DNA of 64,000 nt from Actinomycetota bacterium (GCA_052390575.1 JBQTGU010000018.1:34125-98124), one strand, 5' to 3'; shown: positions 6,101-47,027, numbered from the stretch's first letter. Numbers and translations: made by a program. The notes: generated from the letters alone by a model not told the origin.

Positions 6101-7531
6101 CTAGTAGGCGCCCTCGCGGCGGAGGACCGCGCTGAAGGTCCGGCCGAGGATGGCGAGGTCCATGCTCGGCGACCAGTTGTAGATGTAATACAGGTCGAGC
6201 CGCAGCGATTCGCTCCAGGCCAGATCGGACCGCCCGCTCACCTGCCACAGGCCGGTGAGGCCGGGCTTCACGAGCAGGCGCCAGCGGGCGTCCTGGTCGT
6301 AGCGGGCGACCTCGCTCGGCACTGCGGGACGCGGGCCGACCAGCGACATCTCGCCCGTCAGCACGTGCCAGAGCTGGGGCAGCTCGTCGATGGAGAAGCG
6401 GCGCAGCCACTTGCCCACCGGGGTGCAGCGGGGGTCGTCGCGGATCTTGAACACCAGACCGTCGCGCTCGTTCAGGTGGCGCAGCTGGTCGAGGTCGGCC
6501 TCGGCGCCGACCACCATCGTGCGGAACTTGCGCATCTTGAACACCCGGCCACGGCGCCCGACCCGGTCCTGACCGAAGAGCACCGGGCCCGGACTGGTGA
6601 ACTTGACCAGGAGGGCGACGATCGCGAGCACGGGCGCCGCCAGGACGAGCAGCGCCGTGGCCACGACGATGTCCACCGCCCGCTTCACTGCTTCGGCTTT
6701 GAGCCTCAGGGCGGCGCGGCGCACCCGCTGGAGCGGGATGCCCCGCACGTCGTCGTTCTCCGGCCCGGCCCCGACCCCGATGTCGAAGAAGCGGGGCACG
6801 ACGTGCAGCTCGACGTCGTACTGGACTGCGATGCGCAGCACGTTCACGAGGTCGGCCTCGCGGCTCGGACCGAACGCCACGATCACCCGGTGGATCCCGC
6901 CCCGGTCGAGGAGCGGGCCGAGGCTGTCGACGTCGCCCAGCAGCGGAAGTGGGAGCTCGTCGTCGACGCAGTCGAGAAAGCCCAGGGCGTGCACGCCGTA
7001 CTCGGGGTGCTCCTCGAAGATGCGGGCGAGCTCGACCCCAATCCCGCCGGCCCCGAGGATGACCGTGCCTTCGAGCAGGTGGCCGTGGCGGCGAGCCTCG
7101 CGCACGACCCCGTAGGTCAGCGCCCGCCCGGCGACGACGAGCACCATGCCGACGATCACGAGCGCGAACACGGAGGGGTCGGCCCCCGTGAGCAGCGCCA
7201 CCGGTGCGACGAGCAGGAGCGGGATCGCCAGCCGCCCGATGAGCCACGGCGTCGCCTGGAGTGCCGACATGGTGATGCGCGAGCGGTAGCCGTCGGACGC
7301 CGCGATCGTCGCGATCGTGAGCGCGACGTAGGCGATGCCCAAGAACGACGACGCCGCGCGGGTCAGGAGGAGCGCGGCCGCCAGCGCGAGGCCGTCGTAC
7401 AGGCAGAGAAAGACCGGGACCGCCCAGCGCGCCCGGGTCGTGTGCCGAGCCGGGACGACCAGCGGCTCGGAGACCGTGAGCTCGGGCCGGGCCTCCCCGA
7501 GCTGCTCGAAGACGTGCGTCGCGACGGCCAT
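6101..7531 (-). CDS. Polyprenyl-phosphate hexose-1-phosphate transferase, WbaP/EpsB-type (large PGT)
   Basis: N-terminal TM block, a Rossmann-like middle (VILGAGGIG), and a C-terminal catalytic domain with KMRKFRTM, DELPQLWHVLTGEMSLVGPRP and KPGLTGLWQV. Confidence 0.85.
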   Translation of the reverse strand: MAVATHVFEQLGEARPELTVSEPLVVPARHTTRARWAVPVFLCLYDGLALAAALLLTRAASSFLGIAYVALTIATIAASDGYRSRITMSALQATPWLIGRLAIPLLLVAPVALLTGADPSVFALVIVGMVLVVAGRALTYGVVREARRHGHLLEGTVILGAGGIGVELARIFEEHPEYGVHALGFLDCVDDELPLPLLGDVDSLGPLLDRGGIHRVIVAFGPSREADLVNVLRIAVQYDVELHVVPRFFDIGVGAGPENDDVRGIPLQRVRRAALRLKAEAVKRAVDIVVATALLVLAAPVLAIVALLVKFTSPGPVLFGQDRVGRRGRVFKMRKFRTMVVGAEADLDQLRHLNERDGLVFKIRDDPRCTPVGKWLRRFSIDELPQLWHVLTGEMSLVGPRPAVPSEVARYDQDARWRLLVKPGLTGLWQVSGRSDLAWSESLRLDLYYIYNWSPSMDLAILGRTFSAVLRREGAY

Positions 7532-8139: not shown

Positions 8140-9915
8140 CTACCACTCCACGCGTTCGGCGTGGTCGTCCCGCCACTTCCGGTCGCCGCTCCGCCAGGCG
8201 ATCGCCGGCTCCCGGGCCGACGGCTCCACCCGCAGCCCCGAGGCGCCCTCGGGCAGGCGAAAGCGCAGCGTCAGCTCGCGCCGCTCCCCCCGGGCGAGCT
8301 GGACGGTCGTGGCCACGACCCGGGCGGGCCCGTCGGGGCCGTCGGCCACCAGCTGCTCGGCCCCGTCCCAGCTCAGGTCGAACGCCGCCCCGGGGACGTC
8401 GATCGCGAGGATCCCGAGATAGACGCCTTCGGCCGCGCCGCTGCGGGGATGGGGCCCCACCACGTAGGCGGGCTCGCCGAACGGAGCCTCGTTGACGATC
8501 TCGAGGCCGACCGTGACCTCGGTGTCGGGGCCGGCGGTGTCGACGTCGATCGAGCCCGTGACCGCCATGAACTGGTCGAGCTTGTTCCCGCCGATGTTCA
8601 TCAGCGAGACCAGCAGTGAGTCCTCGTCGAGCTCGCCCGCGATCCCGGCCGCCTCCCACCCCCGCTGCTCGATGGGGTTCGCCGACCACGCCATGACGTG
8701 GCGGCCGCCACCCGCGGGGGCGAGCTCGTCGACCAGCGTCGGCGGCTCCCAGTCGCGGGTCTCGAACGCGTCGATGGCGGTCCGTGCCACCACACCGAGC
8801 TGGTCGCGTCGCGCGGACTGGTCGGCGTCCTGCAGGGGCGCGAGCCGGTATTGCTCGAGGAACACGTAGTGGAGGACGTTCTCGGCGTCGAGCGCGACGC
8901 CACCGGCGTCGATCGGTCCCTCGGCCGCGAGCAGGCCCTGCAGCGTGAGTGGGTCCACGACGATGACGCCGTCGACCGACTCGCCCGTGAGCGCCCGCCA
9001 CATCTCGACCGCCAGCGGCGCGGTGACGTCGAAGCGGGGCGTGGTCGCGAGCTGGCGGAGGTCCTCGGTGGGGCCCAGCCAACCCCAGCGGTCGGCGAAC
9101 TCGCCCGCGACCGGCACCGCCCCCGGCGGCAGGAGTAGGTCGCCGGTCGGGCGCATCTCGCCCAGCTGGAACGCGCCGTCCTGGACCGCGAGCACGCCCG
9201 CGCTCAGCCACATCCCCGATCCCGCCCGCATCTCGGCGTTGTTCGCCGCCAGCACCAGGTAGCGCCGGGGGCCGCGGAGGAACTCGGCGAAACCGGCGGC
9301 GGCCGCTTCGGAGTCGACGAGCGAAGCCTGCACCTCCTTGAGCCGGGCGGCGAAGTCGACACGGGCGTCGCCGACCGGCCCCACCAGGAAGAAGTCGGGG
9401 CCGAGGTCGACGTCCTCGAGGCGCCGCTGGGCGCGCGTCGTGATCCGGACGACCTCCTCCATGAGCGCGATCCGAGCCGCCCCCGCCTCGGGCCGTTCCT
9501 CGAACGCCCGCTCGGCGTCGCGCATCGCCTCCCGGCCGATCGCGACCACGGCGGCCGCCGCCTCGGTCTGGGCGTCGACCGAGCGCACCTGCTCACCTAC
9601 CAGCGGGACGAACTTCAGCGGCGCGAGGAACGGCGAGCCCGCCCGGTCCTCGGCCCGCTCGAACGCCTCCTCTGCCTCCCCGAGCGCGGCGCGGCCCTTG
9701 CCGCGCACTAGGTCGCCCGGCGACAGGTCCTCGCGGGCGTCCTCGAGCCGCTCGATGCCGGCGTCGATGTCGCGCTTCGCCTGGACGACGAGGACGGTCG
9801 AGACCACCAGCCACACGAACGCGACTCCGCCCAGCCCGAGGAGGGCGAGCCGCGCCCGCCGACCCCATGCCGATTGCTCGTAGGGGTCGTCGTGCTCGCC
9901 CATGACGACCGACAT
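8140..9915 (-). CDS. DUF4012 domain-containing membrane-anchored protein
   Basis: Trimmed to the ATG at 9915 (MSVVMGEHDD...). One N-terminal TM, a coiled N-terminal region, and the family-typical PRRYLVLAANNAEMRAGSGMWLSAG. The protein after the TM is predicted extracytoplasmic. Confidence 0.75.
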   Translation of the reverse strand: MSVVMGEHDDPYEQSAWGRRARLALLGLGGVAFVWLVVSTVLVVQAKRDIDAGIERLEDAREDLSPGDLVRGKGRAALGEAEEAFERAEDRAGSPFLAPLKFVPLVGEQVRSVDAQTEAAAAVVAIGREAMRDAERAFEERPEAGAARIALMEEVVRITTRAQRRLEDVDLGPDFFLVGPVGDARVDFAARLKEVQASLVDSEAAAAGFAEFLRGPRRYLVLAANNAEMRAGSGMWLSAGVLAVQDGAFQLGEMRPTGDLLLPPGAVPVAGEFADRWGWLGPTEDLRQLATTPRFDVTAPLAVEMWRALTGESVDGVIVVDPLTLQGLLAAEGPIDAGGVALDAENVLHYVFLEQYRLAPLQDADQSARRDQLGVVARTAIDAFETRDWEPPTLVDELAPAGGGRHVMAWSANPIEQRGWEAAGIAGELDEDSLLVSLMNIGGNKLDQFMAVTGSIDVDTAGPDTEVTVGLEIVNEAPFGEPAYVVGPHPRSGAAEGVYLGILAIDVPGAAFDLSWDGAEQLVADGPDGPARVVATTVQLARGERRELTLRFRLPEGASGLRVEPSAREPAIAWRSGDRKWRDDHAERVEW

Positions 9916-12984: not shown

Positions 12985-13032
12985 CCACACCAGCCCCATC
13001 CTCCACAACATCAGACTACGAGAAAATATCCC

Positions 13033-13062
13033 TTGCATCTCTTTGTGCCGTTTGGTTAGAGT
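13033..13062 (+). promoter_or_regulatory. Putative sigma-70-type promoter (TTGCAT - 18 nt - TAGAGT) of the DUF222/HNH gene
   Basis: It lies in the only clearly AT-richer stretch between 12985 and 13094. The hexamers are at 13033..13038 and 13057..13062. RBS GGAAGGA is at 13084..13090, ahead of the ATG at 13095. Confidence 0.45.
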
Positions 13063-13078
13063 ACGAACGTACGTTCCC
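13063..13078 (+). promoter_or_regulatory. LexA/SOS-box-like palindrome aCGAAC-GTAC-GTTCcc
   Basis: The core GAAC-N4-GTTC (13065..13076) matches the actinobacterial SOS box TCGAAC-N4-GTTCGA. It lies immediately downstream of the putative -10. Confidence 0.45.
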
Positions 13079-13094
13079 TCCGGGAAGGAACGTG

Positions 13095-30297: not shown

Positions 30298-31959
30298 ATG
30301 AGACGCCGACGTCGCACACCCGCAGTCGCCCCTGCCCCCGAGACCTCCCCCGAGACCTCCGGGGCGCCGACCGGCGAGGCCGACGCGGCCGACGAAGGGC
30401 AGCTCGAGGCGCCGCGGCCGCCGCTGCGCGCGGCCGAGCTGCACTACGACGAGGGCGTCGAGCTCCTGAAGGCGGCCGTGGAGGGGGTGCGCCACCACGC
30501 GCCCCGGCCAGTCGAGTTGCCGGTGCGACCGGACGCCAAGCGGCGGGGGCCGCGCAACGGGAAGCGGCCGGGGAACGGACGCGGGCGCGACCCGTTCGCC
30601 GAGCCGTTCGCCGAGCCTTTCGTCGAGCAGCCGGACGCCGAGCAGCCGGACGCCGAGGAGATCGAGGAGATCGAAGCGATCGAGGACCTCGACAGCGAGC
30701 CCGCCGACGTCCGGCGCCGTCGCCGCGGCGCCCGGCACCGCCACGGCACCACGATCAGGCGGGGGACGGATCCCTACGCCGGCGAGCTCGACCTCGCCGG
30801 CAACGGCGAACAAGACCTCGCCGGCAACGGCGAGCACGCCCAGACGCTCGAGCGGTCCGACGCCGATGACGTCGGCGCCGACACCAGCCCGACCGTGGAG
30901 CCGGCGGCGCCGGGAGCTTTCGAGGAGGGCGAGCTGAGCACCGGGCTCGACCACGCGCTGGTGACGGCCGCGGACGCGGCGACGATCCCACGCGAAGAGC
31001 GACCGCCGCTCCTCGCTCGTCGACACGCACGGACACTCGTTGCCGCGGGCACAGCGTTGGCGCTCGTGGTCGCGGGCATCCTGGCGGTCGCGGCAGTGAG
31101 CGATCGCGGCGGCGACAAGTCGACGCCGGCAGGCGGCGCCCCCTCCGAGCCCGTCCGCTTCGTGTTCGACGAGGTTCCGGTCGCCCCGGGCGCGACCGTC
31201 GAGCGGGGGTGGGCCCTACGCGGACCGGACGGCTCGCGCTTCGACGGGACGCTCACGTTCTCCAACTCGACCGGAACCCCCGTCGCCGTCAGTCACACCG
31301 AGGTGATCCCGAAGGCGCTGGCGTCGTCGGTCGACGACATCGAGTTCGAGCCCGCTCCGGTCGTGGTCGAGGCCGACCCCGTCGTTCGTTTCGACGTCAC
31401 GGTCCCCGCCAACGGCACCGCCGAGGCGTCCTACCGCATCGAGGTGGCGCCCCTCGGGGCGGACCGCTCCCGCCTCGAGGAATGGGCCGATGCGCTCGAG
31501 ACCGAGCTCGCATCCCGGGCGGCAGCCGCGGCCACGACCACCACGACCACGACCGCGCCCCCCCAGACGACGCCGACCACCAGCGCCGCGCCACCTCCGA
31601 AGGGCGGCGCCGCACCCGGACCTCCGGCGCCCGCCGCGCGCGGCACGATCATCATCGCCGCGACGTCAGGTGGAGGAACGGGTACGTTCGGGTTCAGCGG
31701 TCCCGGCGGGAACCTGTCGGTGACGACGTCCGGTTCCCCGAACGGTTCGGGACAGGCGGGTGCGATGGCCGTGTCCCCGGGCACCTACTCATGGACCGAG
31801 GTCTCGCAGTCAGCTGGCTGGGTCTTCCACAGCATTCACTGCACCGACATGGAGGCGGCTCCCTTCGAGCACCGTTCCACGATTTCGGGCGCGACGGCCA
31901 CGATCAACGTTCAGCCCGGTGAGACCGTCGTCTGCACGTGGGCGAGTGAGCCCGCCTGA
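30298..31959 (+). CDS. Hypothetical single-pass membrane protein with a repeat-rich charged N-terminus and an extracytoplasmic beta-sandwich-like C-terminus
   Basis: TM helix TLVAAGTALALVVAGILAVAAV and Thr/Pro linker TTTTTTTAPPQTTPTTSAAPPP. The C-terminus PGTYSWTEVSQSAGWVFHSIHC...GETVVCTW resembles Cna-B/SdrD-B-type domains. The start is uncertain. Confidence 0.55.
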   Translation: MRRRRRTPAVAPAPETSPETSGAPTGEADAADEGQLEAPRPPLRAAELHYDEGVELLKAAVEGVRHHAPRPVELPVRPDAKRRGPRNGKRPGNGRGRDPFAEPFAEPFVEQPDAEQPDAEEIEEIEAIEDLDSEPADVRRRRRGARHRHGTTIRRGTDPYAGELDLAGNGEQDLAGNGEHAQTLERSDADDVGADTSPTVEPAAPGAFEEGELSTGLDHALVTAADAATIPREERPPLLARRHARTLVAAGTALALVVAGILAVAAVSDRGGDKSTPAGGAPSEPVRFVFDEVPVAPGATVERGWALRGPDGSRFDGTLTFSNSTGTPVAVSHTEVIPKALASSVDDIEFEPAPVVVEADPVVRFDVTVPANGTAEASYRIEVAPLGADRSRLEEWADALETELASRAAAAATTTTTTTAPPQTTPTTSAAPPPKGGAAPGPPAPAARGTIIIAATSGGGTGTFGFSGPGGNLSVTTSGSPNGSGQAGAMAVSPGTYSWTEVSQSAGWVFHSIHCTDMEAAPFEHRSTISGATATINVQPGETVVCTWASEPA

Positions 31960-31983: not shown

Positions 31984-32577
31984 CTAGGATCCCCCCTCGC
32001 CCCAGGCCAGGTTCACGAACCGGGTGAGGAGGGCATCGAGCAGGTCGGCGGTCGCGTCGTAGCCCTCGGGCGGTCCGCCCGTCGGGTCGCGAACGTCGTC
32101 GTCAGGCGACGAGCCCAGCAGGTCCGCTCGTCGTCTGCCCGCGTGCACCCGTGCGACCCACTGCGCGAGCGGCTCCTCGCTCCGTCGTGCGCCCACGGCC
32201 GAAGCCCGGCGCACCAGCTCCTTGATCGTGAACGTGCGCGGCCACGCGTCCGGGTCGAGCACGACGACCTCACGGACGTGCGCCCGCTCCAGGCCGAGGA
32301 CGAGATCGGCGCCACGGACCACGCCTTTCTCCAACTGCCGGCTGAGCCGCTCCGCGGCGCGGAGTCCCCGATCCTCGAGCGCCCGCCGCGCGTCCGCCAG
32401 GGACGGCCGGCCCGCTTCGAGCAGACCGGCAGAGGTCACCGTGGCCGGGACGCCGCGCTGGTCGAGCCGGTGCCGCAGCACGGCTTCCGCCATGGGGGAA
32501 CGGCAGAGGTTCGCCGTGCAGACGATCAGTACTCGGGGAGCACGAGCCGCGACGGCACCATGAGGCGGTACCGGCAT
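31984..32577 (-). CDS. Low-molecular-weight protein tyrosine phosphatase
   Basis: Trimmed to the ATG at 32577. Catalytic loop VLIVCTANLCRSPMAE (C-x5-R-S) and a DP loop, VRDPTGG. Confidence 0.85.
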   Translation of the reverse strand: MPVPPHGAVAARAPRVLIVCTANLCRSPMAEAVLRHRLDQRGVPATVTSAGLLEAGRPSLADARRALEDRGLRAAERLSRQLEKGVVRGADLVLGLERAHVREVVVLDPDAWPRTFTIKELVRRASAVGARRSEEPLAQWVARVHAGRRRADLLGSSPDDDVRDPTGGPPEGYDATADLLDALLTRFVNLAWGEGGS

Positions 32578-32614: not shown

Positions 32615-32890
32615 TCAGGCGATTGCTTCGCTGGTGTCCCTGGCGCGACCACGCACGCCCGCCCGGCGGCGCGCCGCCAGGACGAGGACGATCCCGGCGA
32701 CGAGCGTCGCCAAGCCGATCCAGACGAGCGGCATCGTCTCCGAGCCGGTGACGGCGAATTCGCCGCCCCCGCCCCCCGCTCCCTGGCCCGCGCCGGCAGG
32801 CGAAGGAGGGTACTGCTGCGCCCACGCCGAGCCGGCGGACACGAGGAGCATGACCATGCTCCCGGCAAGAAGAATCAAGATCCTACGCAT
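32615..32890 (-). CDS. Small (91 aa) secreted Gly/Pro-rich protein with an LAXTG-like (FAVTG) sorting signal; paralog of 7567..7893
   Basis: Signal peptide ending SAWA|QQ, then YPPSPAGAGQGAGGGGGE, FAVTG, the helix PLVWIGLATLVAGIVLVLAA, and RRRAGVRGRAR. RBS GGAGGA precedes the ATG. Confidence 0.6.
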   Translation of the reverse strand: MRRILILLAGSMVMLLVSAGSAWAQQYPPSPAGAGQGAGGGGGEFAVTGSETMPLVWIGLATLVAGIVLVLAARRRAGVRGRARDTSEAIA

Positions 32891-33005: not shown

Positions 33006-35981
33006 TCACGGACCGTGGTGGAGCTGGTCCCAGAGCGTGCGCCCGCCCGCCGGCTCCAGGCGGACCCGCACGCGGGTGGACTCCCGGGCCTCGACCCGGC
33101 CCTCGGCGGCCCGGTCGCCGTCGCGGGTGAGCCCGTCGACCTCGGCGATCCGCCACCCGTCCGGCACCTCGAGGCGGACCGAGACGTCGTCCGGGGCCAG
33201 GAAGGGCTGCGGGATGATCTCGAGCTCGTACCAGTCGTCAGGCAGGCGAACGGCTCCAGCCACGTCGAGCGAGAGCGTGGTCGTGGATCCGGCGAAGGTG
33301 CTCACGAACGTCGCGAACACGTTGCGTCCGAGCTCGCGATCGCTCTCCAGGGACGTCACGTTGTGCTCGAGGTCCGACCGTGTGACGTCGGAGGGGGTGA
33401 AGACCGAGACGAAGGAGAAGTTCTCCCCGGCGACGAAGCGGTCCTCGAGCCCCTCGGCCGGCCCGATGACGGCAACCGGCAGCCCGCTGCTCGGCGCGGT
33501 GTTCTCGAGCGCCACGTCGACCTGGCCGGTCACCTCGGCGTACTCGCCGGAGCCCACCGGATCGATCGTGACCGAGTAGTCGACGTGGCGCCTGAGGTAG
33601 TAGTCGAGCTTGTTGGCCCCGGCGTTCTGGGTGACCACGATGAGGGAGTCGCTCTCGGGCCGCGGCACTGAGCCTTCGGTGTTCACGAGCTCGGAGAGCG
33701 CCTGTTCCTCCGGCCTCGTGAAGTACACGGAGACGTGGCCCTCGCGGCTGGCCCGCCCGAGAACCTCGGCGATCCGGCTGGGCCGACCGAGGTCGTCGGA
33801 CTCGGTCGCGACATCGACGACCTCCTCGGCGACGTCGCCGAGGAAGTCGGCCCGCTCGGGCGTGGCCTCGAAGGCCACGTACGCCTGGCTCAACGTCACG
33901 TCGACGACGTTGTCGGCCGTGATCGGCACCGGCCATCCCTCGACCGGCACCGGGCCGGTGAGCTCGAGCAGGGCGGCGAGACCGACGGGGTCGACGGCGA
34001 CCACGCCGTCGACCTTCTCCCCGCCCGACTCCGGGTAGAGCTCGGCGATCACCTGGCCGACCACCGGGAACTCGGGTGACATGTTCACGTTCTGCCACGT
34101 CAGCTCGGGCTCGAAGCGGCCGTAGCGCCGCAGGTACTCCTCGGGGCCGGAGATAGTCCGGCTGCGGTCGCCACCTTCGTTCAGCACGGTCACTCGCCTG
34201 ATGAACTCGAGGTCGACCTTGCCGTTCTCGGCGGTCAGGATTCCCCAGCTGCCGATGAAACCTCCCGTCGCCCGGAGCTCGGCGGGGTTCTGCACCGCGA
34301 GGAAGTAGCGGCGCGGTCCGTTCCCCCCCAGGACCTCGGGCGCGAGCCGGGCGGCTCCCGCGCCCCGGGCGGCGTCCTGCTCGGCGCGCGCGAGCTCGTG
34401 CTCGACCTTGTCGAGCGCCTCGTGGACGGGCGCGAGCAGAAACCCCGTGTGGATGTCAGCGACCCGTTCCTCCGTCCCGCTGAGGAGCGCGGCCGCCTCC
34501 TCCAGGCTCGGCGTGATGCGCCGCACCTCGTCGAGGGGGATCGTCCCGTCTCGCACCCGGAGCTTGTCTTGATCCACGGGCCCGGTTAGCCGCTCGCCCG
34601 CTCGGGCCAGGTCCAGGCCCGCGTCGGCGAGCTCGCGGGTGGCATGGAGGTTCGCCCCCAGCACGGGAACGACGAGCCCACCCAGCACGACCGGGTTGTA
34701 CAGACGATCGCGCGCGTCCGCGAAGGCTGCGGACGCCTCTTCGAACCGTTCGGCCGCAACGTCGGGATCACCCCTTCGTGCCGCGGAGATCCCGCGCTCG
34801 GCCAGCCGCCGACCATCCTCGAGTGAGCGGCGGGACTCGATGCCCGCCACGACGCCGGGGATCGACGCGAGCGTCGCCGCGACCCCCACGCCCAACACGA
34901 CGAGCACGACGCGGCCGCTGATGCCCTCGGCTCGCCCCTCGTACACGCGTCCTCGGCCGGCCACGCTCGCCAGCACGACCAGCGGGAGCGCGGCGACGGC
35001 TGCGCCCGGCCCGACCGGCAGCACGCCCCGCCCCACGAAGATCGCCACGACCGACAGGGTGAGTTGGACGGCTACGAGCACTCGGACGACGCCTGCGGTT
35101 CGCCACCCGCGCGCGCGGAGGCGGTGCGGGAGGTGATCGGGCCGGCGCGTGGTCAGTCGCCGGCGGTGACGCAGGCGGCTGAACGCCACCATCACGGTGT
35201 CGGTGATCGGGAGCCCGAGCAGGATCAGCGGAACGGCGAGGCTCCCGGGCGAAGCGATCGCGGGCTCAAGCTCGATCGCCGCCACCGCCAGGATGGCGCC
35301 GGTCGGCAGACCACCGGCCTGACCGACGAACAGCGACGCCGGCCGCAGGTTGTACGTCAGGAAGCCGAGACAGGCACCGGCTGCCGCGGCCGCGATCGTG
35401 GCGAGACCATCCTGGTCACCGAAGGCGGCGAGGCCGAATGCGCCACCGGCGGCGGCGGCGGCCACGCCGGCAAGCAGGCCGTCGGTGTTGCCGATCCCAG
35501 CAACTGCGGCGGTGACGCCGGCGATCCACACGACCGTGACCACGGCATCCGTCGTGGGGACGCCGAAGAACTCGACCCGGGCCCCGCCGACCACGGGCAC
35601 GACCGAGATCGCGAGGATCGACCAGGAGAGGGACCGCTCCCGCAGTCGGCCCTGGTCGGCCAGCACCCCGACGACCGCGAACGCGACCACGGCGGGAGCC
35701 AGCGCCAGCAGCTCGCGGGCATGGTCGGGCGCGAGCAGCCATCCCGCCAGTGACGCCACCAACACGACGCCCCCCGAACGCCGGATGAGTCGAGCGGATG
35801 AGGAGCCTCGGGCGCTGCGGCGCAACTGAGCCCCCGCGATGACTGGGAGCAACGCCGACACCGAGAATGCCAGCGCCCACCGGTCCGCCACCCGGGGGAC
35901 GCTAGACGTCCTTCCCCTTCCGGCGGTGGCGGGCGGCGGTGTGCGCGCGCCGTCTACGACTGCGCCTAGGACCTCGGACAT
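33006..35981 (-). CDS. Fusion protein: degenerate MraY/WecA-like polytopic membrane domain + DUF4012 domain
   Basis: The N-terminal ~380 aa have about 10 TM segments with WecA-like remnants (IGNTDGLLAGVAA, PITDTVMVAFSRLRHRR, RPDHLPHRLRARG). The C-terminal ~600 aa carry the DUF4012 hallmark PRRYFLAVQNPAELRATGGFIGSWG. Confidence 0.75.
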   Translation of the reverse strand: MSEVLGAVVDGARTPPPATAGRGRTSSVPRVADRWALAFSVSALLPVIAGAQLRRSARGSSSARLIRRSGGVVLVASLAGWLLAPDHARELLALAPAVVAFAVVGVLADQGRLRERSLSWSILAISVVPVVGGARVEFFGVPTTDAVVTVVWIAGVTAAVAGIGNTDGLLAGVAAAAAGGAFGLAAFGDQDGLATIAAAAAGACLGFLTYNLRPASLFVGQAGGLPTGAILAVAAIELEPAIASPGSLAVPLILLGLPITDTVMVAFSRLRHRRRLTTRRPDHLPHRLRARGWRTAGVVRVLVAVQLTLSVVAIFVGRGVLPVGPGAAVAALPLVVLASVAGRGRVYEGRAEGISGRVVLVVLGVGVAATLASIPGVVAGIESRRSLEDGRRLAERGISAARRGDPDVAAERFEEASAAFADARDRLYNPVVLGGLVVPVLGANLHATRELADAGLDLARAGERLTGPVDQDKLRVRDGTIPLDEVRRITPSLEEAAALLSGTEERVADIHTGFLLAPVHEALDKVEHELARAEQDAARGAGAARLAPEVLGGNGPRRYFLAVQNPAELRATGGFIGSWGILTAENGKVDLEFIRRVTVLNEGGDRSRTISGPEEYLRRYGRFEPELTWQNVNMSPEFPVVGQVIAELYPESGGEKVDGVVAVDPVGLAALLELTGPVPVEGWPVPITADNVVDVTLSQAYVAFEATPERADFLGDVAEEVVDVATESDDLGRPSRIAEVLGRASREGHVSVYFTRPEEQALSELVNTEGSVPRPESDSLIVVTQNAGANKLDYYLRRHVDYSVTIDPVGSGEYAEVTGQVDVALENTAPSSGLPVAVIGPAEGLEDRFVAGENFSFVSVFTPSDVTRSDLEHNVTSLESDRELGRNVFATFVSTFAGSTTTLSLDVAGAVRLPDDWYELEIIPQPFLAPDDVSVRLEVPDGWRIAEVDGLTRDGDRAAEGRVEARESTRVRVRLEPAGGRTLWDQLHHGP

Positions 35982-36134: not shown

Positions 36135-37427
36135 ATGAGGGAGGACGACGTGCTCCGCCAGGCCCACGACGTGCGACCCGTACCGAACATGTACGGATCG
36201 GAATACATTTGGCACGACATCGCGTCGCGGCCTCAGACGGTCCGTGGCCGACTTGGGTTGCACACGCCGGAATCGAGGAGAAGAGTGACTATCGTGGGCG
36301 GGTTCCAACCGCGCGTCGCCGTCTCTGTGCGGACGGTGCTAATCACGACCGAAATCGCCCAGATGCTGGCCGACTCGCTCGAGCACCTCGGAGCCCACGC
36401 TTGGGTCGTTCGTGAGCGCGACCATGCGACGCCAACACCCGAGGTGCTCGTGATCGTCGGCGCCGGCCCGGAGTTCGGCTCGCTCGAGCGGTTGCTCAGT
36501 TCTTGGCCGAAGCGACCGTTCACCATCCTGTGGGCGTTGGAGCCCTTTCCACCTCCAGACCTGCCCGAGGACACCGTCCGCCGCGGTCAGCGGATGGCGG
36601 AGGTCGACGCCCGGCTTCGCCTCCCGGAGAACCGGCTTGGCGTCACGTTGCGGCACATCTTGCCGAATGGACTGCGAGAACGAGCCTCGCGTTTGCGGGC
36701 TCGCCTCACCGCCGGCTCCGGCGCGCTGATCGACCGCGGACACCAGGCGGCGCCGGGGAGGATCGACCGCCACGCGTTCCGCCGCCTGCGGTGGGTGACA
36801 AGGAACGTCCAAGCCGGAAGCATCGGCCACGTCATGGTGACGAACACGAACGCTGTGCGCATCCTCGCCGACCACGGGATCCACGCCACCCGGGCACCCG
36901 TGGGCTATCACCGCTGGATGGGCGGCGACCTCAGCCGCGCGCGGGACATCGACGTGGCGTTCCTCGGGAACCCGGCGGGCGCCCGAGCAGGCCGGCTAGC
37001 AACCATCAAGGAGGAGCTCGCCCAGCTCGGCATCGCCCTCACGGTGCCGCTTCCGATATGGGAACGCAGCGAGCGGACCGCCTTTCTCAGCCGTACACGA
37101 GTGCTTGTGAACCTTCGCAGCAACTCATGGCACCCCGAGCTCGAGCGCTTCGTGCTGGCGGCTGCCAACGGTGCCCTCGTAGTCTCCGAGGCCCCAATCC
37201 CAGCGACCGAGCCTTTCGTGAACGCCACGCATTTCGTCGCCGTTCCCGCGAACGAGATCCCCGACACCGTGGCTCATTACATCGACCACGAGAACGAGCG
37301 TCGCGCCATCGCCGACAATGCCCACGAGCTCGTCACGACGGAGGTCACGATGGCAGCGGTTGCCCACCGAGTGCTTGCGGTGGCGGCAGGAATTGGCCTG
37401 TTCGATGACTCCGAACACCGCAAGTGA
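36135..37427 (+). CDS. CgeB-like / Glyco_trans_1_2-type putative glycosyltransferase (start uncertain; alternative GTG at 36327)
   Basis: The C-terminal part reads ERFVLAAANGALVVSEAPIP...HFVAVPANEIPDTVAHYIDHENERRAIADNAHELV, as in CgeB-family proteins. The region is AT-richer. Confidence 0.5.
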   Translation: MREDDVLRQAHDVRPVPNMYGSEYIWHDIASRPQTVRGRLGLHTPESRRRVTIVGGFQPRVAVSVRTVLITTEIAQMLADSLEHLGAHAWVVRERDHATPTPEVLVIVGAGPEFGSLERLLSSWPKRPFTILWALEPFPPPDLPEDTVRRGQRMAEVDARLRLPENRLGVTLRHILPNGLRERASRLRARLTAGSGALIDRGHQAAPGRIDRHAFRRLRWVTRNVQAGSIGHVMVTNTNAVRILADHGIHATRAPVGYHRWMGGDLSRARDIDVAFLGNPAGARAGRLATIKEELAQLGIALTVPLPIWERSERTAFLSRTRVLVNLRSNSWHPELERFVLAAANGALVVSEAPIPATEPFVNATHFVAVPANEIPDTVAHYIDHENERRAIADNAHELVTTEVTMAAVAHRVLAVAAGIGLFDDSEHRK

Positions 37428-37436
37428 GATGTGGCG

Positions 37437-38240
37437 TCACGCTCGCCGTACCCGGGCCAGCTGTGTAGTCAGGGTTCCCCATTCCTCCTTGAACTCGTTG
37501 ACGGGAGGAAGAAGCTCCACACGCCATCGGTTCCGGTCGATGGAGTCGACGAGCGCCCTGACGCCATAGCCTCCTCTCACGACACCGTCTTCGTTGGTGT
37601 AGTCATCGAAGATGACAACCGAGCCGTCATGGAGAAAGGCCTGCACGTTCGCCCAGTCGGACGCCACGGTCTCGTAGGAATGACCGCCGTCGATGAATAC
37701 GAGGTCCATCGGCGGCAACCGTGCTTTGCGAAGTGTCTCGCGAGAGTCGCCACCCAGGAGGTGCACGGTGGCTCCTCGCCGCTCCAGCCTGGCCCGGATG
37801 TCTTGTTCGGACAGCGGCATCGACGAAAGCTCGCGCGCCAGGAGCTCGGGCGCGGCGTGTTCGCGGAACACATCGAACCCCCAGTACTCGGCCCGACCAT
37901 GCGTCTTGAGCACCTCGGCAATCAGCAGTCGGGCGCTTCTGCCACCGCTGACACCGATCTCCAGGATCCTCGGCCCGGACGCGGCACGCGCCTCGCGCCT
38001 CAGCGTCTGGTAGCGGGACGGAAGGCCCCGACGGAAGCCCGGATCGATGACCCGCTTGGCGCGTCCGGCGGCCCACCGAAGTGTCCTCCGGATGCCCTTC
38101 GGCCTTCGGAGCCCACGAAGCACGAGGCCGATCCTTGACCACTCGCGCCGCCGGGCACCCCGATGGTCCTCGCTGTGTCCACGAGCGGCTCCGGTCATCC
38201 GGGCGATGATACGAGGCCTGTCGATGTCGTCGACGGGCAT
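37437..38240 (-). CDS. Class I SAM-dependent methyltransferase (Methyltransf_24-like)
   Basis: ILEIGVSGGRSARLL (motif I) and DLVFIDGGHSYETVASDW. Confidence 0.7.
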   Translation of the reverse strand: MPVDDIDRPRIIARMTGAARGHSEDHRGARRREWSRIGLVLRGLRRPKGIRRTLRWAAGRAKRVIDPGFRRGLPSRYQTLRREARAASGPRILEIGVSGGRSARLLIAEVLKTHGRAEYWGFDVFREHAAPELLARELSSMPLSEQDIRARLERRGATVHLLGGDSRETLRKARLPPMDLVFIDGGHSYETVASDWANVQAFLHDGSVVIFDDYTNEDGVVRGGYGVRALVDSIDRNRWRVELLPPVNEFKEEWGTLTTQLARVRRA

Positions 38241-38344: not shown

Positions 38345-40282
38345 TCAGGGCTGGCCGGGTGCGGCGGCGGGCTTGTCACCGGTCGCGGCCCACTCGTGGT
38401 CCCGCGCGGAGGGCTCGGGAATCACGGTGACGATATGCAGCAAAAGGCGGCGGGCCTCGTCCTGGTCGCCCTGCTCGGCGACAAGCTGCAGCTGCTCGAG
38501 GGTGCGCTCGAGCTGCTCGGCGGACATCCGGGCCGGTCGCAACGCGACGACGGAGGGGTGCTCTGTCGACGCGACCGCTTCCCACGGCGCCCGCAGCTCC
38601 TCGATCAGCTTCTCGCCCGGGCGCGGGCCGGTGATCTGCACTTCGATATCGGACCCGACCTCGAGCCCGCAGAGGTGGATCATCCGTTCGGCGAGCTCGA
38701 GGATGTTCACCGGCTCGCCCATCTCCAGCATGAAGACTTCGTTGTCGCGGGCGATCGCGGCGGCCTGGAGCACCAGGCTCACGGCCTCGGACACGCTCAT
38801 GAAGAAGCGCGTCATCTCGGGGTCGGTCACTGTCACGGGACCACCCGCGGCGATCTGCTGTTGAAACGTCGGGATGACGCTCCCCCGGCTGCCGAGGACA
38901 TTGCCGAATCGCACCGAGCAGTACTGGTGGCCCGGTGGCGTGCGCGCGAGAACGATCTGCTCCGCCAGCCACTTCGATGCACCCATCACGTTCGCCGGTC
39001 GGGCGGCCTTGTCGGTCGAGACGAAGACCAGGCGCTCCACCCCGACGCGCACGGCAGCGTCGGCGACGTACACGGTGCCGAGCACATTGGTGCACACGGC
39101 CTCGCACGCGTGCTGCTCCAGGATCGGGACGTGCTTGTGGGCGGCGGCGTGGAACACGACGTCGGGACGCGTCTGATCGAAGACCCGATCGACCACCTCC
39201 CGGTCGCCGACGTCGGCGAGCACCTGCTTGACGAAGCCCGGCAACCGGGCGGCGGCATCGTGGAGGTGGGTCTCGTCCCGGTCGACGAGCACGAGTGAGC
39301 CCGGGTCGAACTCGGCTACCTGGCGGGCGATCTCGGAGCCGATGGATCCGCCGCCCCCGGTGATGAGCACCCGCCGGCCGCGCAGGAAGTCGCGCACGAC
39401 GCCGGAGTCGACCTCCACCTGGCGCCGGCCGAGGAGGTCTTCGATGCGGAGGTCGCGGGCATCCCGCACCGAGACGTCCCCGTGCATCAAGTCGGCGATG
39501 GTCGGGAGCGTCTTGACCGGGACGCCGGCCGCGGCCGCCGCCGTCGCCACCCGACGGGCGACCTCCGGGCCGGCCGAGGGGATCGCCAGGAGCACCTGGT
39601 GGGCGCCGTGCTCGTGGATCACCTTCGTGAGATCGCCGACCGTCCCGGCGATTCGGACTCCGCCGACGGAACGGCCCCGGATGCGCGGGTTGTCGTCCAC
39701 GACCGCCACCGGTGTCAGCCCGATCTTCTCGTTGCGGCGCATCTCGCGCAGGATCGTCGCCCCGGCCGAGCCCGCGCCGACCACCACGACCCGCAGACCG
39801 AGGGTGCGGTCAACCGCTTGCCGGAACGCGAACAGTCGCGACTGGAAGCGGACCGCACCCAGGAGAAGGCTGGTGAAGAGGGGGCCCATCAGGAGGACCG
39901 AGAGGGGCATGCGGAGCGGTCCCTCCCAGGCGAACAGGCCGAACAGCACCGCCCCGGAGGTGAGGCCGGCGAGCAGGAGGCGACGGGCCTCTTCGATGCT
40001 GGCGTGCTCCCACATGTGGCCGTACGCGCCCCAGAGGCGGTTGGCGACCAGGTGCACCAGGACGGCGACGGGGAGGAACACCCGGAGCCGCGCCCAGAAG
40101 TGGGACGGAACCGAAAGCTCGAAGCGCAGCAGCACCAACGCGGTGTACGCGGTCAGGACCAGGAAGCAGTCGAGGAATGCCAACGCGACATCGCCGGGGA
40201 TCCGGCTGGCGGCCCGCGCGATCTCCAAACTGGCCCGCCGAGCGGGCGGGCGAAGGGATGACCGTCGCCGCTGGGCCCTCAC
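38345..40282 (-). CDS. Membrane-anchored NDP-sugar 4,6-dehydratase/epimerase, CapD/PglF/WbpM family
   Basis: Four N-terminal TM segments, then LRVVVVGAGSAG, VLITGGGGSIGSEIARQV and STDKAARPANVMGASKWLAE. Confidence 0.9.
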   Translation of the reverse strand: MRAQRRRSSLRPPARRASLEIARAASRIPGDVALAFLDCFLVLTAYTALVLLRFELSVPSHFWARLRVFLPVAVLVHLVANRLWGAYGHMWEHASIEEARRLLLAGLTSGAVLFGLFAWEGPLRMPLSVLLMGPLFTSLLLGAVRFQSRLFAFRQAVDRTLGLRVVVVGAGSAGATILREMRRNEKIGLTPVAVVDDNPRIRGRSVGGVRIAGTVGDLTKVIHEHGAHQVLLAIPSAGPEVARRVATAAAAAGVPVKTLPTIADLMHGDVSVRDARDLRIEDLLGRRQVEVDSGVVRDFLRGRRVLITGGGGSIGSEIARQVAEFDPGSLVLVDRDETHLHDAAARLPGFVKQVLADVGDREVVDRVFDQTRPDVVFHAAAHKHVPILEQHACEAVCTNVLGTVYVADAAVRVGVERLVFVSTDKAARPANVMGASKWLAEQIVLARTPPGHQYCSVRFGNVLGSRGSVIPTFQQQIAAGGPVTVTDPEMTRFFMSVSEAVSLVLQAAAIARDNEVFMLEMGEPVNILELAERMIHLCGLEVGSDIEVQITGPRPGEKLIEELRAPWEAVASTEHPSVVALRPARMSAEQLERTLEQLQLVAEQGDQDEARRLLLHIVTVIPEPSARDHEWAATGDKPAAAPGQP

Positions 40283-44195: not shown

Positions 44196-45181
44196 AAGCC
44201 CAGCTCGTCCTCCGCCACGAACACCGCCTCGTCGTAGCGCAGCATCACGAGCCCAGCGCGCCAGCCGTCAGGCGCCGCCGTGGACGGCAGACCGAGGACG
44301 TCCTCGATGATCCAGCGCGGGAAGGCCGCGCCCGCTTCCCACGAGAGCGGGTAGCCACCGCCGAACCGGGGGTTGATCTCGATGACACGCGCGTCCCCGC
44401 CGGCGTCATCGAGAAAGGCTTGCACAGTGAGTGGACCGAACGCACCCGGGAGTCGCTCGCACACCTTGCATCCGAGCTCGGCCAGGCGATCGCAGCGTAC
44501 GGTGACGCCCTTGCTCACCTCGCCGGCGCGCACCTCGATCCGGCGCCGAGGCACCGCACACAGGGCTTGACCGCGGCGGTTCACGAGGACGTCGATCGTG
44601 TGCTCGTTGCCGGGCGCGATCGTCTGGACCACGACGTCGCCGCGCCGCCCGGCTACCTCCAGCTCCTCGCGGCTGTCGACGCGCGCGACGCCCTGTGAGG
44701 CACTGCCAGAACGGGGCTTCACGATGAGCGGGAACGCCCAGCGGAGAGGATCCGCGATCGCCTCGGCGAGAGATCCTTGCCGCACGGTCGGGAACCCCTC
44801 CCGTTCGAGCCAGGCGTGGGTGCGTTCCTTGTCGCCGGCGATCGCGACCGTCTCCGGAGCCGACACGACGACGGTGGTCCCCACGTCGGCAAAACGCCCG
44901 CGATGCTCGGCGAGGATCGGAAGCTCGGTGTCGATGGTCGGCACGACGAGCGTGACCTCGTGGGCGCGACACAGCTCGACCAGCGCGGGCACGAACTCGG
45001 GCGCATCGCAGCGCGGTACCTGGAAGGCGCGGTCAGCGACCGCGCACGCGGCGGACAGCTTCGAGGCGTCGGCGGCCATGACGTCGCCCTCAAGCCCCAG
45101 ACTGGTCAGACTTCGCGCGAACGCCCGGAGCAGCGCGACCCGTCGGCCGGCCGACGAGATCAAGACGGTGACCCGGGTCAT
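44192..45181 (-). CDS. ATP-grasp domain protein (carboxylate-amine ligase type)
   Basis: VTVLISSAGRRVALLRAF, PLIVKPRSGSASQGV and IEINPRFGGGYP. Confidence 0.75.
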   Translation of the reverse strand: MTRVTVLISSAGRRVALLRAFARSLTSLGLEGDVMAADASKLSAACAVADRAFQVPRCDAPEFVPALVELCRAHEVTLVVPTIDTELPILAEHRGRFADVGTTVVVSAPETVAIAGDKERTHAWLEREGFPTVRQGSLAEAIADPLRWAFPLIVKPRSGSASQGVARVDSREELEVAGRRGDVVVQTIAPGNEHTIDVLVNRRGQALCAVPRRRIEVRAGEVSKGVTVRCDRLAELGCKVCERLPGAFGPLTVQAFLDDAGGDARVIEINPRFGGGYPLSWEAGAAFPRWIIEDVLGLPSTAAPDGWRAGLVMLRYDEAVFVAEDELGL

Positions 45182-45867
45182 CAGGCCGACGCGTCAGGCC
45201 TGTGCTGGCCCCGGTCGCGGCCGGGCAGCTCGGGCATCGTGGCGTGGCCATCGTGGCTGACGCCCTCGCGGCTCCAGACTCGACCGACCGTCATCACCAG
45301 AATCCTGATGTCGAGCCCGAGGCTGCGGTGGTCCACGTACCAGACGTCGAGCTCGAGCCGCTCGTCCCACGAGAGCGCGTTCCGACCGCGCACCTGCGCC
45401 CACCCGGTGATTCCGGGCCGAACCTCCAGGCGCCGGGCCTGGCGAGGCGTGTAGCGGTCCAGGTAGCGCACCGGCAGCGGGCGCGGGCCCACGAGGCTCA
45501 TGTCCCCCGTCAGCACGTTCACCAGGGACGGCAGCTCGTCGATGCTCGAGCTCCGGAGGAATCGACCGACTGACGTCGCGCGCTGCGAGTCGGCGTCGGG
45601 GACCTGCTCACCCGGCCGGAGCGCACGCATCGTCCGGAGTTTCACGAGCTCGAATTCGCGGGCGCCGATCCCGGTTCGGCGGTCCCGGAAGAACACCGGC
45701 CGGCCCATCGTCAGCACGATCGCCAGCGCCGCCAGGAGGAGCACCGGCGCGCACAGCACGAGCAGCAGGCCCGCGCCCAGTACGTCGACGAGCCGCCTCG
45801 CGCCATCGGCCAGCGAGGAACGCCTCCCCCGGACGACCCGGCGGGGGGACGCGGTACCAAGATCCAC
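45181..45867 (-). CDS. Small monotopic phosphoglycosyl transferase, PglC/WcaJ-C-terminal type
   Basis: Trimmed to the GTG at 45867. Re-entrant helix LLLVLCAPVLLLAALAIVLTMGRPVFF, then KLRTM, DELPSLVNVLTGDMSLVGPRP and RPGITGWAQV. Confidence 0.85.
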   Translation of the reverse strand: MDLGTASPRRVVRGRRSSLADGARRLVDVLGAGLLLVLCAPVLLLAALAIVLTMGRPVFFRDRRTGIGAREFELVKLRTMRALRPGEQVPDADSQRATSVGRFLRSSSIDELPSLVNVLTGDMSLVGPRPLPVRYLDRYTPRQARRLEVRPGITGWAQVRGRNALSWDERLELDVWYVDHRSLGLDIRILVMTVGRVWSREGVSHDGHATMPELPGRDRGQHRPDASA

Positions 45868-45890
45868 GATCGAATCGTACGCTCCACCGC

Positions 45891-47027
45891 ATGGACGGCT
45901 CCCCACGGAAGCGAGTGCTTGTGGTGTCGCACGAGGCCACGCGCACAGGCGCGCCGAAGGTGGCGGTCGAGGCCGTGCGCGCCCTCCACTATCACGGGTT
46001 CGAGGTGGTTGCGCTCCTGCGCGCCGGCGGCCCGCTGACGGTGGAGTTCCGGTCAGCAGCCGACCGCCTCGACCGCGAGCGGCTTCCGCGTCTCCGTGCT
46101 CAGCTGCGCCGCCCACAAGCGTTGCGGCGTCGCGTCAGGCGCGTGGATGCGGGCATCGCCGCCCGCCTGCTCCGGAGGTGGCAGCCCGATCTCGTGTACC
46201 TCAACACGGTGGTCTCGGCGGTGTTCGCCCGCCCAGCGCTGGCGCTCGGTATCCCGACGGTCGTCCATCTGCACGAGCTCGACCCGATGCTCGGGGCTGG
46301 AATGGCGCGGTACCAGCTGGCCGAGATCGCCGACCACCTGCGCTGGGTGGCGTGCTCGGGCGCGGTCCGAAATCAGCTCGTCCTCGCCACGGGATTGGAC
46401 CGTGATCGAGTCGAGGTCGTCCCGTCTCCGGTCGACGCGGTCCACCTCCAGCGGGTCGCGGCCGAACGCGCGGTCGCCAGATGTGATCGACAACCGATCG
46501 TCGGTGCCTGCGGGACTGCCGACGTGCGCAAGGGGGTCGACCTGTGGCTGGAGATGGCCGCACTCATGGCGCGGAACCCGCGTCAAGGGCCTCCGGTGCG
46601 CTTCGTCTGGGCCGGAAGAACACCCGATCGCGAGCCCCGCCGGCTCGTGAGCAGCCTGGGGCTCAACGACCGGGTGCAGTTCACCGGCGAGCTCGAGGAC
46701 CCGAGCCCGCTGCTGGCGATCATGGACGTGTTCACCCTCCCGTCACGTTCCGACCCGTTCCCACTCGTCGTGCTCGAAGCCATGGCCCTCGGGCGACCGA
46801 TCGTGGCGTTCGACGTCGGTGGTGTCGCCGAGCAGCTCGCCGACACTGGAGTGCTCGTCGCGCCCGGCGACGTCACCGGGCTCGCTCGCGAAGTGCAGCG
46901 CCTCCTGGATGATCCCGAGGCGGCGCGGCAGTTGGGCGACCGGGCCGCCTCGCGGGTACGCGAACGGTTCGGGGTCGAGGGTTTCCGCGCGGCCATCACC
47001 GGAATCGTGGAGCGGTCACTGCCGTAG
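45891..47027 (+). CDS. Glycosyltransferase family 4
   Basis: N-terminus RVLVVSHEATRTGAPKV. C-terminus LPSRSDPFPLVVLEAMALGRPIVAFDVGGVAEQL. Confidence 0.8.
   Translation: MDGSPRKRVLVVSHEATRTGAPKVAVEAVRALHYHGFEVVALLRAGGPLTVEFRSAADRLDRERLPRLRAQLRRPQALRRRVRRVDAGIAARLLRRWQPDLVYLNTVVSAVFARPALALGIPTVVHLHELDPMLGAGMARYQLAEIADHLRWVACSGAVRNQLVLATGLDRDRVEVVPSPVDAVHLQRVAAERAVARCDRQPIVGACGTADVRKGVDLWLEMAALMARNPRQGPPVRFVWAGRTPDREPRRLVSSLGLNDRVQFTGELEDPSPLLAIMDVFTLPSRSDPFPLVVLEAMALGRPIVAFDVGGVAEQLADTGVLVAPGDVTGLAREVQRLLDDPEAARQLGDRAASRVRERFGVEGFRAAITGIVERSLP

Follow-up and report, generated by a model that had tools for sequence, protein, structure and literature searches.

A WecA/MraY-like domain with substituted catalytic residues fused to DUF4012 in an actinobacterial surface-polysaccharide locus

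Polytopic phosphoglycosyl transferases (PGTs) such as MraY, WecA and DPAGT1 are heavily studied antibiotic targets and act as gatekeepers of glycoconjugate synthesis. A 64,000-nucleotide stretch of DNA from an actinobacterium (Actinomycetota bacterium, GCA_052390575.1 JBQTGU010000018.1:34125-98124; the window, with positions counted from its first letter) carries a gene in which a domain of this fold is joined to the anonymous domain DUF4012, and in which several of the residues expected at the catalytic positions of the transferase are substituted. The question raised by this locus is what such a domain could be kept for, and why it should be tied to a large domain predicted to lie outside the membrane. 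The answer that we favour with moderate confidence, from patterns of conservation, is that the PGT-like domain is a pseudo-enzyme kept as a specific ligand- or partner-binding membrane module, which would couple DUF4012 to the initiation of polysaccharide synthesis with a separate PGT doing the priming.

Active site and fold of the PGT-like domain

The gene and the elements of its membrane part are the following.

33006..35981 (-), mechanical open reading frame (ORF) of the fusion protein, 991 amino acids, ATG 35981, stop codon 33006-33008
33006..35891 (-), fusion gene, putative pseudo-PGT-DUF4012, 961 amino acids from GTG 35891, as judged from orthologue starts
34956..35891 (-), polytopic PGT (MraY/WecA, PF00953) fold domain, ~11 transmembrane (TM) helices, catalytically degenerate (Pfam, AlphaFold2 model)
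35649..35663 (-), motif 1, LADQG in place of (L/V)DD(R/Y)x, first Asp replaced by Ala and second Asp kept (alignment)
35475..35510 (-), motif 2, AAVAGIGNTDGL in place of NAxNxxD(G/N)xDGL, both Asn replaced by Ala, first Asp by Gly, last D-G-L kept (alignment)
35310..35354 (-), YNLRPASLFVGQAGG, YNxxPA and Phe kept (uridine-pocket region by homology), Asp of GDxGS replaced by Gln (alignment)
35118..35141 (-), loop-E motif PDHLPHRL, intact, matching DHLSHRL of active relatives
34839..34955 (-), Arg-rich linker RGRVYEGRAEGISGR, predicted to be cytoplasmic, and extra TM helix predicted to lead the chain outside (sequence; continuous AlphaFold2 helix 326-372 in 961 numbering)

The N-terminal domain was aligned with E. 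coli WecA and MraY (NC_000913), with three active-looking actinobacterial PGTs and with all fusion relatives, and residue roles were taken from papers on MraY and DPAGT1 (residue numbers are those of the 991-residue ORF unless 961 numbering is named). A preliminary description of the locus had called four motifs degenerate, and the strings that it quoted were all present and aligned to PGT motifs (LADQG at residues 107-111, AAVAGIGNTDGL at 158-169, FVGQAGG at 218-224 and PDHLPHRL at 281-288). Three of the four bore the claim out, with DD changed to AD, NxxNxxDGxDG to AxxAxxGNxDG and GDxGS to GQxGG, but DHLPHRL is the intact, normal motif of the subfamily: active relatives carry DHLSHRL or DHMTHRL (pattern DH(L/M/T)(S/T)HRL), with HHH at this place in MraY and DHxxHRL in actinobacterial WecA-like enzymes. 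Position by position, the counterpart of WecA D90 (MraY-Aa D117) is Ala, the first and the second Asn of NxxN are each Ala, D156 is Gly and D217 of GDxGS (MraY-Aa D265, DPAGT1 D252) is Gln, with WecA D91 (MraY-Aa D118) and D159-G-L kept; by motif spacing, the equivalents of B. subtilis MraY D98, N171, D174 and D231 are lost. Profile match, fold and the loop-E His motif place the domain in the PNPT superfamily, and the DD(xxD), NxxNxxDGxDG(L) and GDxGS Mg2+-Asp hallmarks of that superfamily are absent. The domain is not an ordinary WecA with an intact active site, as the alignment shows that essential and Mg2+-ligand residues are lost, and in sister clades the Mg2+-Asp position is occupied by Arg or Lys.

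MraY requires its 'DDD' residues D117, D118 and D265, the first of which has been proposed as the base (PMC6606608, PMC5039524), and in MraY-Aa D265 coordinates Mg2+ (PMC6606608). The uracil pocket of MraY comprises K70, G194, L195, D196 and F262 (PMC6606608, PMC5039524), and D98, D99, K116, N171, D174, D231, H289 and H290 are highlighted as invariant in the B. subtilis enzyme (PMC5039524). The Mg2+ ligands of human DPAGT1 are Asn185 and Asp252, with activity of 1.2% in N185A, 0.7% in N185D and 7% in D252A (PMC6218659). The Asp-to-Gln change is not decisive alone, because DPAGT1 D252N is ~5-fold more active than the unmodified enzyme (PMC6218659), and the case for a dead enzyme would rest more on the lost second Asn and the lost first Asp of DGxDG, with the Arg or Lys of the sister clades also weighing in its favour. 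From these losses we infer catalytic death of the PGT-like domain, and predict that the transfer of sugar 1-phosphate to polyprenyl phosphate has been lost.

The 991-residue ORF with a PGT-related N-terminal part was found as the preliminary description had given it, with a PF00953 (Glycos_transf_4) match at residues 94-238 (E=5.6e-13; 49.6 bits against a gathering cutoff of 27), and its assignment of the C-terminal ~600 residues to DUF4012 was likewise upheld by a PF13196 match at residues 554-701 (E=1.3e-39; 136.5 bits against a cutoff of 28) and by homology over the whole ectodomain. The fusion protein matched MraY 5jnq at E=3.5e-9 (phmmer) and scored below the cutoffs of the NCBIfam equivalogs for wecA (TIGR02380, 23.3 bits, cutoff 326) and mraY (TIGR00445, 40.4 bits, cutoff 192). 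The window has a G+C content of ~71%, and the fusion ORF shows the codon-position G+C expected of a genuine gene, with 0.89 at third positions (GC3). Translation probably begins at GTG 35891, giving 961 residues, because the orthologues (953-1012 residues) all open at (M/V)A(D/N)RW, the equivalent of this codon, and because a 93% identical orthologue (L007) has a stop codon 6 codons 5' of that start.

The full-length AlphaFold2 model had a mean confidence (pLDDT) of 91.8, and its N-terminal part matched ~20 whole MraY chains with target-normalised TM-scores of 0.65-0.79 over ~320 columns (Foldseek, predicted structure). The TM helix, the Arg-rich loop before it, the positive-inside rule and WecA/MraY topology, the last two being established knowledge, together indicate that the linker would be cytoplasmic and DUF4012 extracytoplasmic. 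Set against polytopic PGTs of the WecA/TagO/WbpL type, of which MraY and DPAGT1 are the solved structures, the protein shares the fold, the order and spacing of the motifs, the second DGL, YNxxPA, the Phe, DHxxHRL and a setting in a surface-polysaccharide cluster; it alone has four of seven hallmark positions substituted, the extra TM helix and the presumably extracytoplasmic domain of ~600 residues.

The PGT-like domain is maintained under purifying selection and is not decaying. Compared with the L007 orthologue, the ratio of nonsynonymous to synonymous change (omega, Nei-Gojobori) was 0.18 in the PGT-like domain, 0.12 in linker and stalk and 0.095 in the DUF4012 core, with amino-acid identities of 88%, 94% and 97%, respectively. 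Among 39 degenerate domains, N211, P214, A215, D282, H283 and H286 were conserved in 100% and R287 in 97%, the same residues as in active PGTs, and the catalytic positions varied freely among degenerate fusions (ADAAGDQ, IEKDGDR, DNNNDNA, xQERDPE). By this pattern the loops on the nucleotide and pyrophosphate side are selectively kept and constraint is released on the catalytic and metal positions, the conserved residues being those of the putative uridine pocket and of loop-E (pyrophosphate/sugar).

The fusion family, its intact members and the DUF4012 ectodomain

A frameshift of sequencing or assembly could have joined a wecA-like gene to a DUF4012 gene, which is what the preliminary description had named as the danger to its own claim, and we put the chance of this at next to nil. 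Nothing was found in support of such an artefact. A word-indexed search returned 29 full-length PF00953+PF13196 proteins at 39-93% identity (Acidimicrobiia or Actinomycetota where named), many further fusions came from a DUF4012 profile search (617 relatives) and an exhaustive HMMER search, and a scan of GTDB species genomes with a 12-sequence alignment (A5) gave 80 loci, many with the same uninterrupted fusion ORF. Continuous fusion ORFs stand in dozens of independent contigs of metagenome-assembled genomes (MAGs) from differing samples and pipelines, the relatives have the linker and extra TM helix in conserved form and the full-length model is confident; conservation of the architecture across more than 60 independent assemblies rules the frameshift out. 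The opposite case was met in a few MAG loci, where fusion genes are split by apparent frameshifts (L048, L050, L051, L079).

The gene carries a PF00953-type domain, a linker TM helix and DUF4012 in a single ORF, and its DUF4012 part groups with those of the other fusions. We infer that PGT-DUF4012 proteins are an undescribed fusion family, with the window's protein a pseudo-enzyme variant within it. Databases automatically annotate these fusions as MraY/WecA-type transferases or as DUF4012 proteins. A literature search found neither the PGT-DUF4012 fusion family nor any naturally occurring pseudo-enzyme of the polytopic PGT superfamily described, and searches for PF13196, and for 'pseudoenzyme' with MraY/WecA, returned nothing relevant.

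Many members of the family have kept their active site. The fusions P0029, P0125, P0132 and P0135 retain every PGT motif, and the full DDNNDDD set was present at 9 genome loci (L003, L005, L011, L012, L034, L039, L057, L060, L061). When long (at least 850 residues) representatives of 50% clusters were retrieved with the N-terminal domain of the window's protein (n=39), 27 were intact, 1 near-intact and 11 degenerate, and of the 28 that were new to the analysis 27 carried DUF4012. Neighbour joining on the DUF4012 region placed all fusions in one clade, separate from the short forms described below, with intact members basal and near-intact members adjoining different degenerate subclades. To judge by this branching, the degenerate state seen in the window is derived, because many fusions keep all catalytic residues and branch basally, and the patterns of decay differ by lineage. 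Intact fusions have the same architecture, linker, DUF4012 module and clade in the DUF4012 tree, and some share a low-molecular-weight protein tyrosine phosphatase (LMW-PTP) gene and a small secreted or anchored ORF; unlike the window's protein they carry full DDNNDDD and have no other PGT within 10 kb, and are therefore likely to prime their own pathway. An intact 345-residue paralogue of the fused domain, with the same N-terminus and ending just past the linker motif, lies 4 bp upstream of a near-intact fusion gene in the P0013 genome.

In the fusions L054 and L071 the canonical catalytic set is complete but for an Asn in place of Asp at the Mg2+-binding position, comparable to the hyperactive D252N of human DPAGT1. 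At L054 (9521-14514) the near-intact fusion (DDNNDDN) is directly followed by a short-form DUF4012 gene, and at L089 (113-4325) two short-form copies stand in tandem.

Priming enzymes are likewise joined to extra membrane or periplasm-facing modules in large monotopic PGTs of the WbaP/WcaJ type, whose accessory domains are non-catalytic, and in the PGT-Wzy_C fusion P0038; in contrast to the window's protein, these belong to a different catalytic superfamily or carry a different accessory domain, and their PGT domain is active. By analogy, such joined modules suggest a coupling of initiation to later steps. P0038 (993 residues) is an intact-motif actinobacterial PF00953 PGT fused to a Wzy_C/O-antigen-ligase-like domain and TPR, and P0037 (696 residues) an intact-motif PF00953 PGT fused to a long multi-TM C-terminal region; both again join a priming enzyme to a module that acts outside and at a late step.

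The DUF4012 part of the fusion protein, and the second DUF4012 gene of the window, are placed as follows.

34332..34838 (-), DUF4012 region part 1, long alpha-helical stalk (helices 2-173 of the AlphaFold2 C-terminal model)
33879..34322 (-), DUF4012 region part 2, alpha/beta core under PF13196, with invariant E568, R570, G574, G659, D664 and Y701 (Pfam, alignment A2)
33009..33878 (-), DUF4012 region part 3, alpha/beta elements and invariant NxxxNK(L/I)D (K791), then beta-sandwich domains (alignment, AlphaFold2)
8140..9915 (-), second, unfused DUF4012 gene with a single TM anchor (Pfam E=6.6e-31; Met start 9915)

An alignment of 137 DUF4012 sequences (A2) was the basis of the invariant columns and of a C-terminal model. 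The model of residues 378-991 (pLDDT 95.1, predicted TM-score (pTM) 0.92) showed the TM helix leading into the long helical stalk, the alpha/beta core and C-terminal beta-sandwiches. The invariant polar residues E568, R570, D664, Y701 and K791 suggest a defined site. Foldseek searches of this model against the PDB gave beta-sandwich sub-domain matches only (Ost1/ribophorin I, the N-domains of M1 aminopeptidases, 4g2a), with query-normalised TM-scores of at most 0.21, and structure therefore offers no functional lead. Identity of the ectodomain as Wzz (PF02706) or as an LCP ligase (PF03816) was rejected, as neither gave a Pfam match at E<=1 and neither was among the 50 best Foldseek matches of either model. 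In the literature searched, DUF4012 was named in three papers, always as a gene without explanation, and PF13196 was not mentioned.

DUF4012 also occurs unfused. The stand-alone gene at 8140..9915 proved to have the single TM helix attributed to it in the preliminary description, as predicted from sequence, and like the B. longum 105-A gene BL105A_0406 it is homologous to the fusion protein over the whole ~600-residue ectodomain. Such genes are found in exopolysaccharide and capsular polysaccharide (EPS/CPS) clusters adjoining a priming transferase (and Wzz); unlike the fusion they have 1 or ~5 TM helices as anchor and no detectable PGT fold, and the partner PGT is a separate monotopic Bac_transf. 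In the EPS cluster of B. longum 105-A the DUF4012 gene lies between the priming transferase and wzz (PMC5412050), and 6 of 14 short-form DUF4012 genes were beside a Bac_transf gene. The link between DUF4012 and lipid-carrier glycan metabolism is thereby stronger than the preliminary description could know, because many fusions have an intact PGT and unfused genes often adjoin those of monotopic PGTs. The role of DUF4012 itself is a conjecture, constrained by its regular pairing with priming transferases.

Most unfused DUF4012 proteins of ~780 residues (e.g. P0041-P0047) have an N-terminal part of ~195 residues with ~5 TM helices and a conserved PTG....D motif, which is in register with G.R...TG....D upstream of PGT motif 2 in the fusions (a weak hhalign match, probability 10.6%, P=0.003). 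This short-form N-terminus could be an extremely decayed PGT remnant.

Priming transferases and gene neighbourhood

Where the fused domain has lost its catalytic residues, a separate PGT is more often found nearby. A first test of co-occurrence with six loci was ambiguous and the sample was enlarged to 35 fusion loci, non-redundant and flanked by at least 8 kb; as a separate PGT we counted an intact PF00953-type or Bac_transf gene within 10 kb. A separate intact PGT was found at 7 of 22 degenerate but 0 of 13 intact or near-intact fusions (one-sided Fisher p=0.025, with lineages not fully independent).

In the window there are two polysaccharide clusters, each with one PGT and one DUF4012 protein, and features of the two clusters are these.

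45181..46116 (-), PglC-like monotopic phosphoglycosyl transferase (Bac_transf; PF02397 E=1.4e-58), DE dyad (IDELPS) and PRP motif present
6101..7531 (-), WbaP-like large monotopic PGT (CoA_binding_3 and Bac_transf; PF02397 E=2.6e-65), ~600 bp from the unfused DUF4012 gene
32615..32890 (-), conserved 91-residue ORF downstream of the fusion gene, with signal peptide AWA/QQYPP (cut between AWA and QQYPP), FAVTG, TM helix and Arg-rich tail
31984..32577 (-), LMW-PTP (CX5R: CTANLCRS; PF01451 E=1.3e-18), probable Met start
38345..40282 (-), PglF/CapD-like membrane 4,6-dehydratase (Polysacc_synt_2; Pfam)
60828-62931, ABC-2 exporter

Cluster A (0.9-10 kb; 869-9915) is of the Wzy/Wzz type, with Wzy_C, Wzz, GT1, a GH5 'cellulase', the WbaP-like Bac_transf and the single-TM DUF4012 protein. 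Cluster B (~30-63 kb) begins with a SpaA-like protein, the LMW-PTP, the 91-residue ORF, the fusion gene, a glycosyltransferase (GT)-like gene, a methyltransferase and the PglF-like dehydratase, and continues with GT1/GT2 genes, an ATP-grasp gene, the PglC-like Bac_transf, GNATs, a deacetylase, two DegT aminotransferases and the ABC-2 exporter. The DE dyad of Bac_transf enzymes is catalytic, and the PglC-like protein is likely to be the real priming enzyme of cluster B. No match to LCP (PF03816) was found among the window genes scanned against Pfam.

Neighbours of the fusion gene recur elsewhere. The LMW-PTP gene is also beside it at the P0003, P0135, P0001, P0026 and P0012 loci (farther away at P0011), and the PglF/CapD-like dehydratase is directly upstream at P0003, P0011 and P0026. 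The 91-residue ORF, in which the segment that varies among loci is Gly/Pro-rich and no longer than ~22 residues, resembles a mini-protein anchored by sortase. Its counterparts were found at L004 (13014-13307), L005 (13046-13543), L007 (4775-5047), L008 (12994-13491) and L009 (10402-10884); across loci the small ORFs have a signal peptide ending in AxA before a mature Q(Q/E)YPP, an LPXTG-like motif (FAVTG, LAITG, LPRTG, LPTTG or LAFTG), a TM helix and an Arg-rich tail, and at the P0011 locus a Sortase gene adjoins. The QxYPP N-terminus of the mature mini-protein is conserved across loci. A regular-expression survey found at least one of two mini-ORF motifs downstream of 12 of 27 degenerate, 4 of 12 intact and 6 of 33 short-form loci; this is well under half of loci and the mini-ORF is therefore a frequent, not an obligate neighbour, so that its candidacy as a sortase-substrate partner universal to the family was dropped.

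A 2.1 kb stretch at 36135-38240, between dehydratase and fusion gene, has a G+C content of 0.66 against ~0.72 and encodes a GT-like protein (+) and a Methyltransf_24 protein (-). Its presence suggests a recent insertion, because the dehydratase directly adjoins the fusion gene at P0003, P0011 and P0026. The 553-residue product of 30298-31959 (+) has an acidic, repeat-rich N-terminus, one TM segment and a linker rich in Thr and Pro, and carries a prealbumin-like SpaA_4 domain at its C-terminus; the P0011 locus encodes a similar SpaA_4 protein, and the window's product may be a cell-surface protein linked to cluster B. Between the clusters (10700-14234) are genes for a PD-(D/E)XK nuclease (10700-11464) and a DUF222 protein (13311-14234), which may be related to mobile elements, followed by the housekeeping genes prmC, prfA and rho in synteny with the P0003 contig.

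Role of the retained domain

Several observations weigh against a pseudo-enzyme kept for binding. No separate PGT was found within 10 kb at 15 of the 22 degenerate loci, the Fisher test of association ignores phylogenetic non-independence and the neighbour-joining tree of the DUF4012 region carries no support values. The PglC-like PGT of the window is 9 kb from the fusion gene and of a different superfamily, therefore no direct heterodimer of pseudo-PGT and PGT is implied; DUF4012 has neither functional annotation nor a structural relative; and the second Asn of NxxN is one that we take, by motif spacing, to be the equivalent of DPAGT1 Asn185. The DPAGT1 mutants of D115 and D116 keep at least 10% activity and D252N exceeds the unmodified enzyme (PMC6218659), and by analogy with this one homologue two of the four substitutions would be individually tolerable. 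These results also favour an active PGT with a non-canonical active site, in which the Gln of GQxGG and other residues would hold Mg2+ and the fusion would be a second priming enzyme, as do the intact uridine pocket and loop-E motif, the purifying selection on the domain and the 15 loci where no other PGT is near. We nevertheless judge an active enzyme very unlikely. The presumed equivalent of Asn185, at which replacement by Ala or Asp leaves DPAGT1 nearly inactive, is Ala, Gly takes the place of the first DGxDG Asp, which is invariant (D174) in MraY of B. subtilis, and sister clades have Arg or Lys at the Mg2+-Asp position; motif patterns differ widely by lineage, as expected on released catalytic constraint, the domain is evolving more quickly (88% identity) than the remainder of the protein (97%), its scores are far under the NCBIfam wecA and mraY cutoffs and a bona fide PGT is present in cluster B.

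The degenerate domain might instead be an inert membrane anchor or evolutionary relic, with neither ligand nor partner and with all function residing in DUF4012. This would agree with the unrelated anchors on which other DUF4012 proteins sit (one TM helix in the window copy, ~5 in the short forms of ~780 residues), and with the PGT-like domain being the fastest-evolving part of the protein. It seems rather unlikely to us, as polar residues of cytoplasmic loops are kept as in active PGTs (N211, D282, H283 and H286 in all and R287 in nearly all of the 39 degenerate sequences), the complete 11-TM fold persists over 39-93% identity and omega is as low as 0.18.

On the preferred reading, of a pseudo-enzyme retained as a binding module, the fusion would be an inner-membrane protein of an Acidimicrobiia-like actinobacterium, from a family built of a WecA-type PGT, an extra TM helix and an extracytoplasmic DUF4012 domain, whose PGT domain became a pseudo-enzyme in this lineage with the MraY fold, the uridine-pocket residues (second DGL, YNxxPA, Phe) and the loop-E motif kept. 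The glycan of cluster B would be primed by the PglC-like Bac_transf (45181-46116). The dead domain would no longer transfer sugar phosphate and may survive as a specific membrane anchor that binds UDP-sugar or UMP, undecaprenyl phosphate or the initiation machinery, and it could in this way keep the outside-facing DUF4012 tied to the initiation of polysaccharide synthesis. The most likely role of DUF4012 would be to act on, or sense, an exported or lipid-linked glycan outside the membrane. The preliminary description had the domain bind polyprenyl-linked intermediates; a direct hand-over of lipid-linked glycan to DUF4012 is not obvious, because the PGT site would face the cytoplasm and DUF4012 the outside.

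A bolder proposal, which we regard as decidedly unlikely, gives DUF4012 the part of an extracytoplasmic component, missing so far, that works at a late step of surface-glycan assembly in Acidimicrobiia and other monoderm lineages and is gated by the pseudo-PGT as a sensor of UDP-sugar or undecaprenyl phosphate. If this were true, DUF4012, as an enzyme or receptor with a new fold, would receive the lipid-linked polymer once complete and might, for instance, pass it on to the wall or to the sortase-anchored QxYPP mini-protein; its obligate coupling to a priming transferase would keep use and release of the lipid carrier in balance, and the recurrent conversion of PGT to pseudo-enzyme would have produced a built-in sensor gating a late step.

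The series from intact through near-intact to apparently dead fusions, with differing substitutions, is a natural mutational experiment on which PGT residues serve catalysis and which serve ligand binding. DUF4012 is found fused to active polytopic PGTs in many lineages and to seemingly dead ones in others, and elsewhere its gene lies next to those of monotopic PGTs; with this, a domain that had been anonymous becomes a partner of the initiating transferase that can be put to the test.

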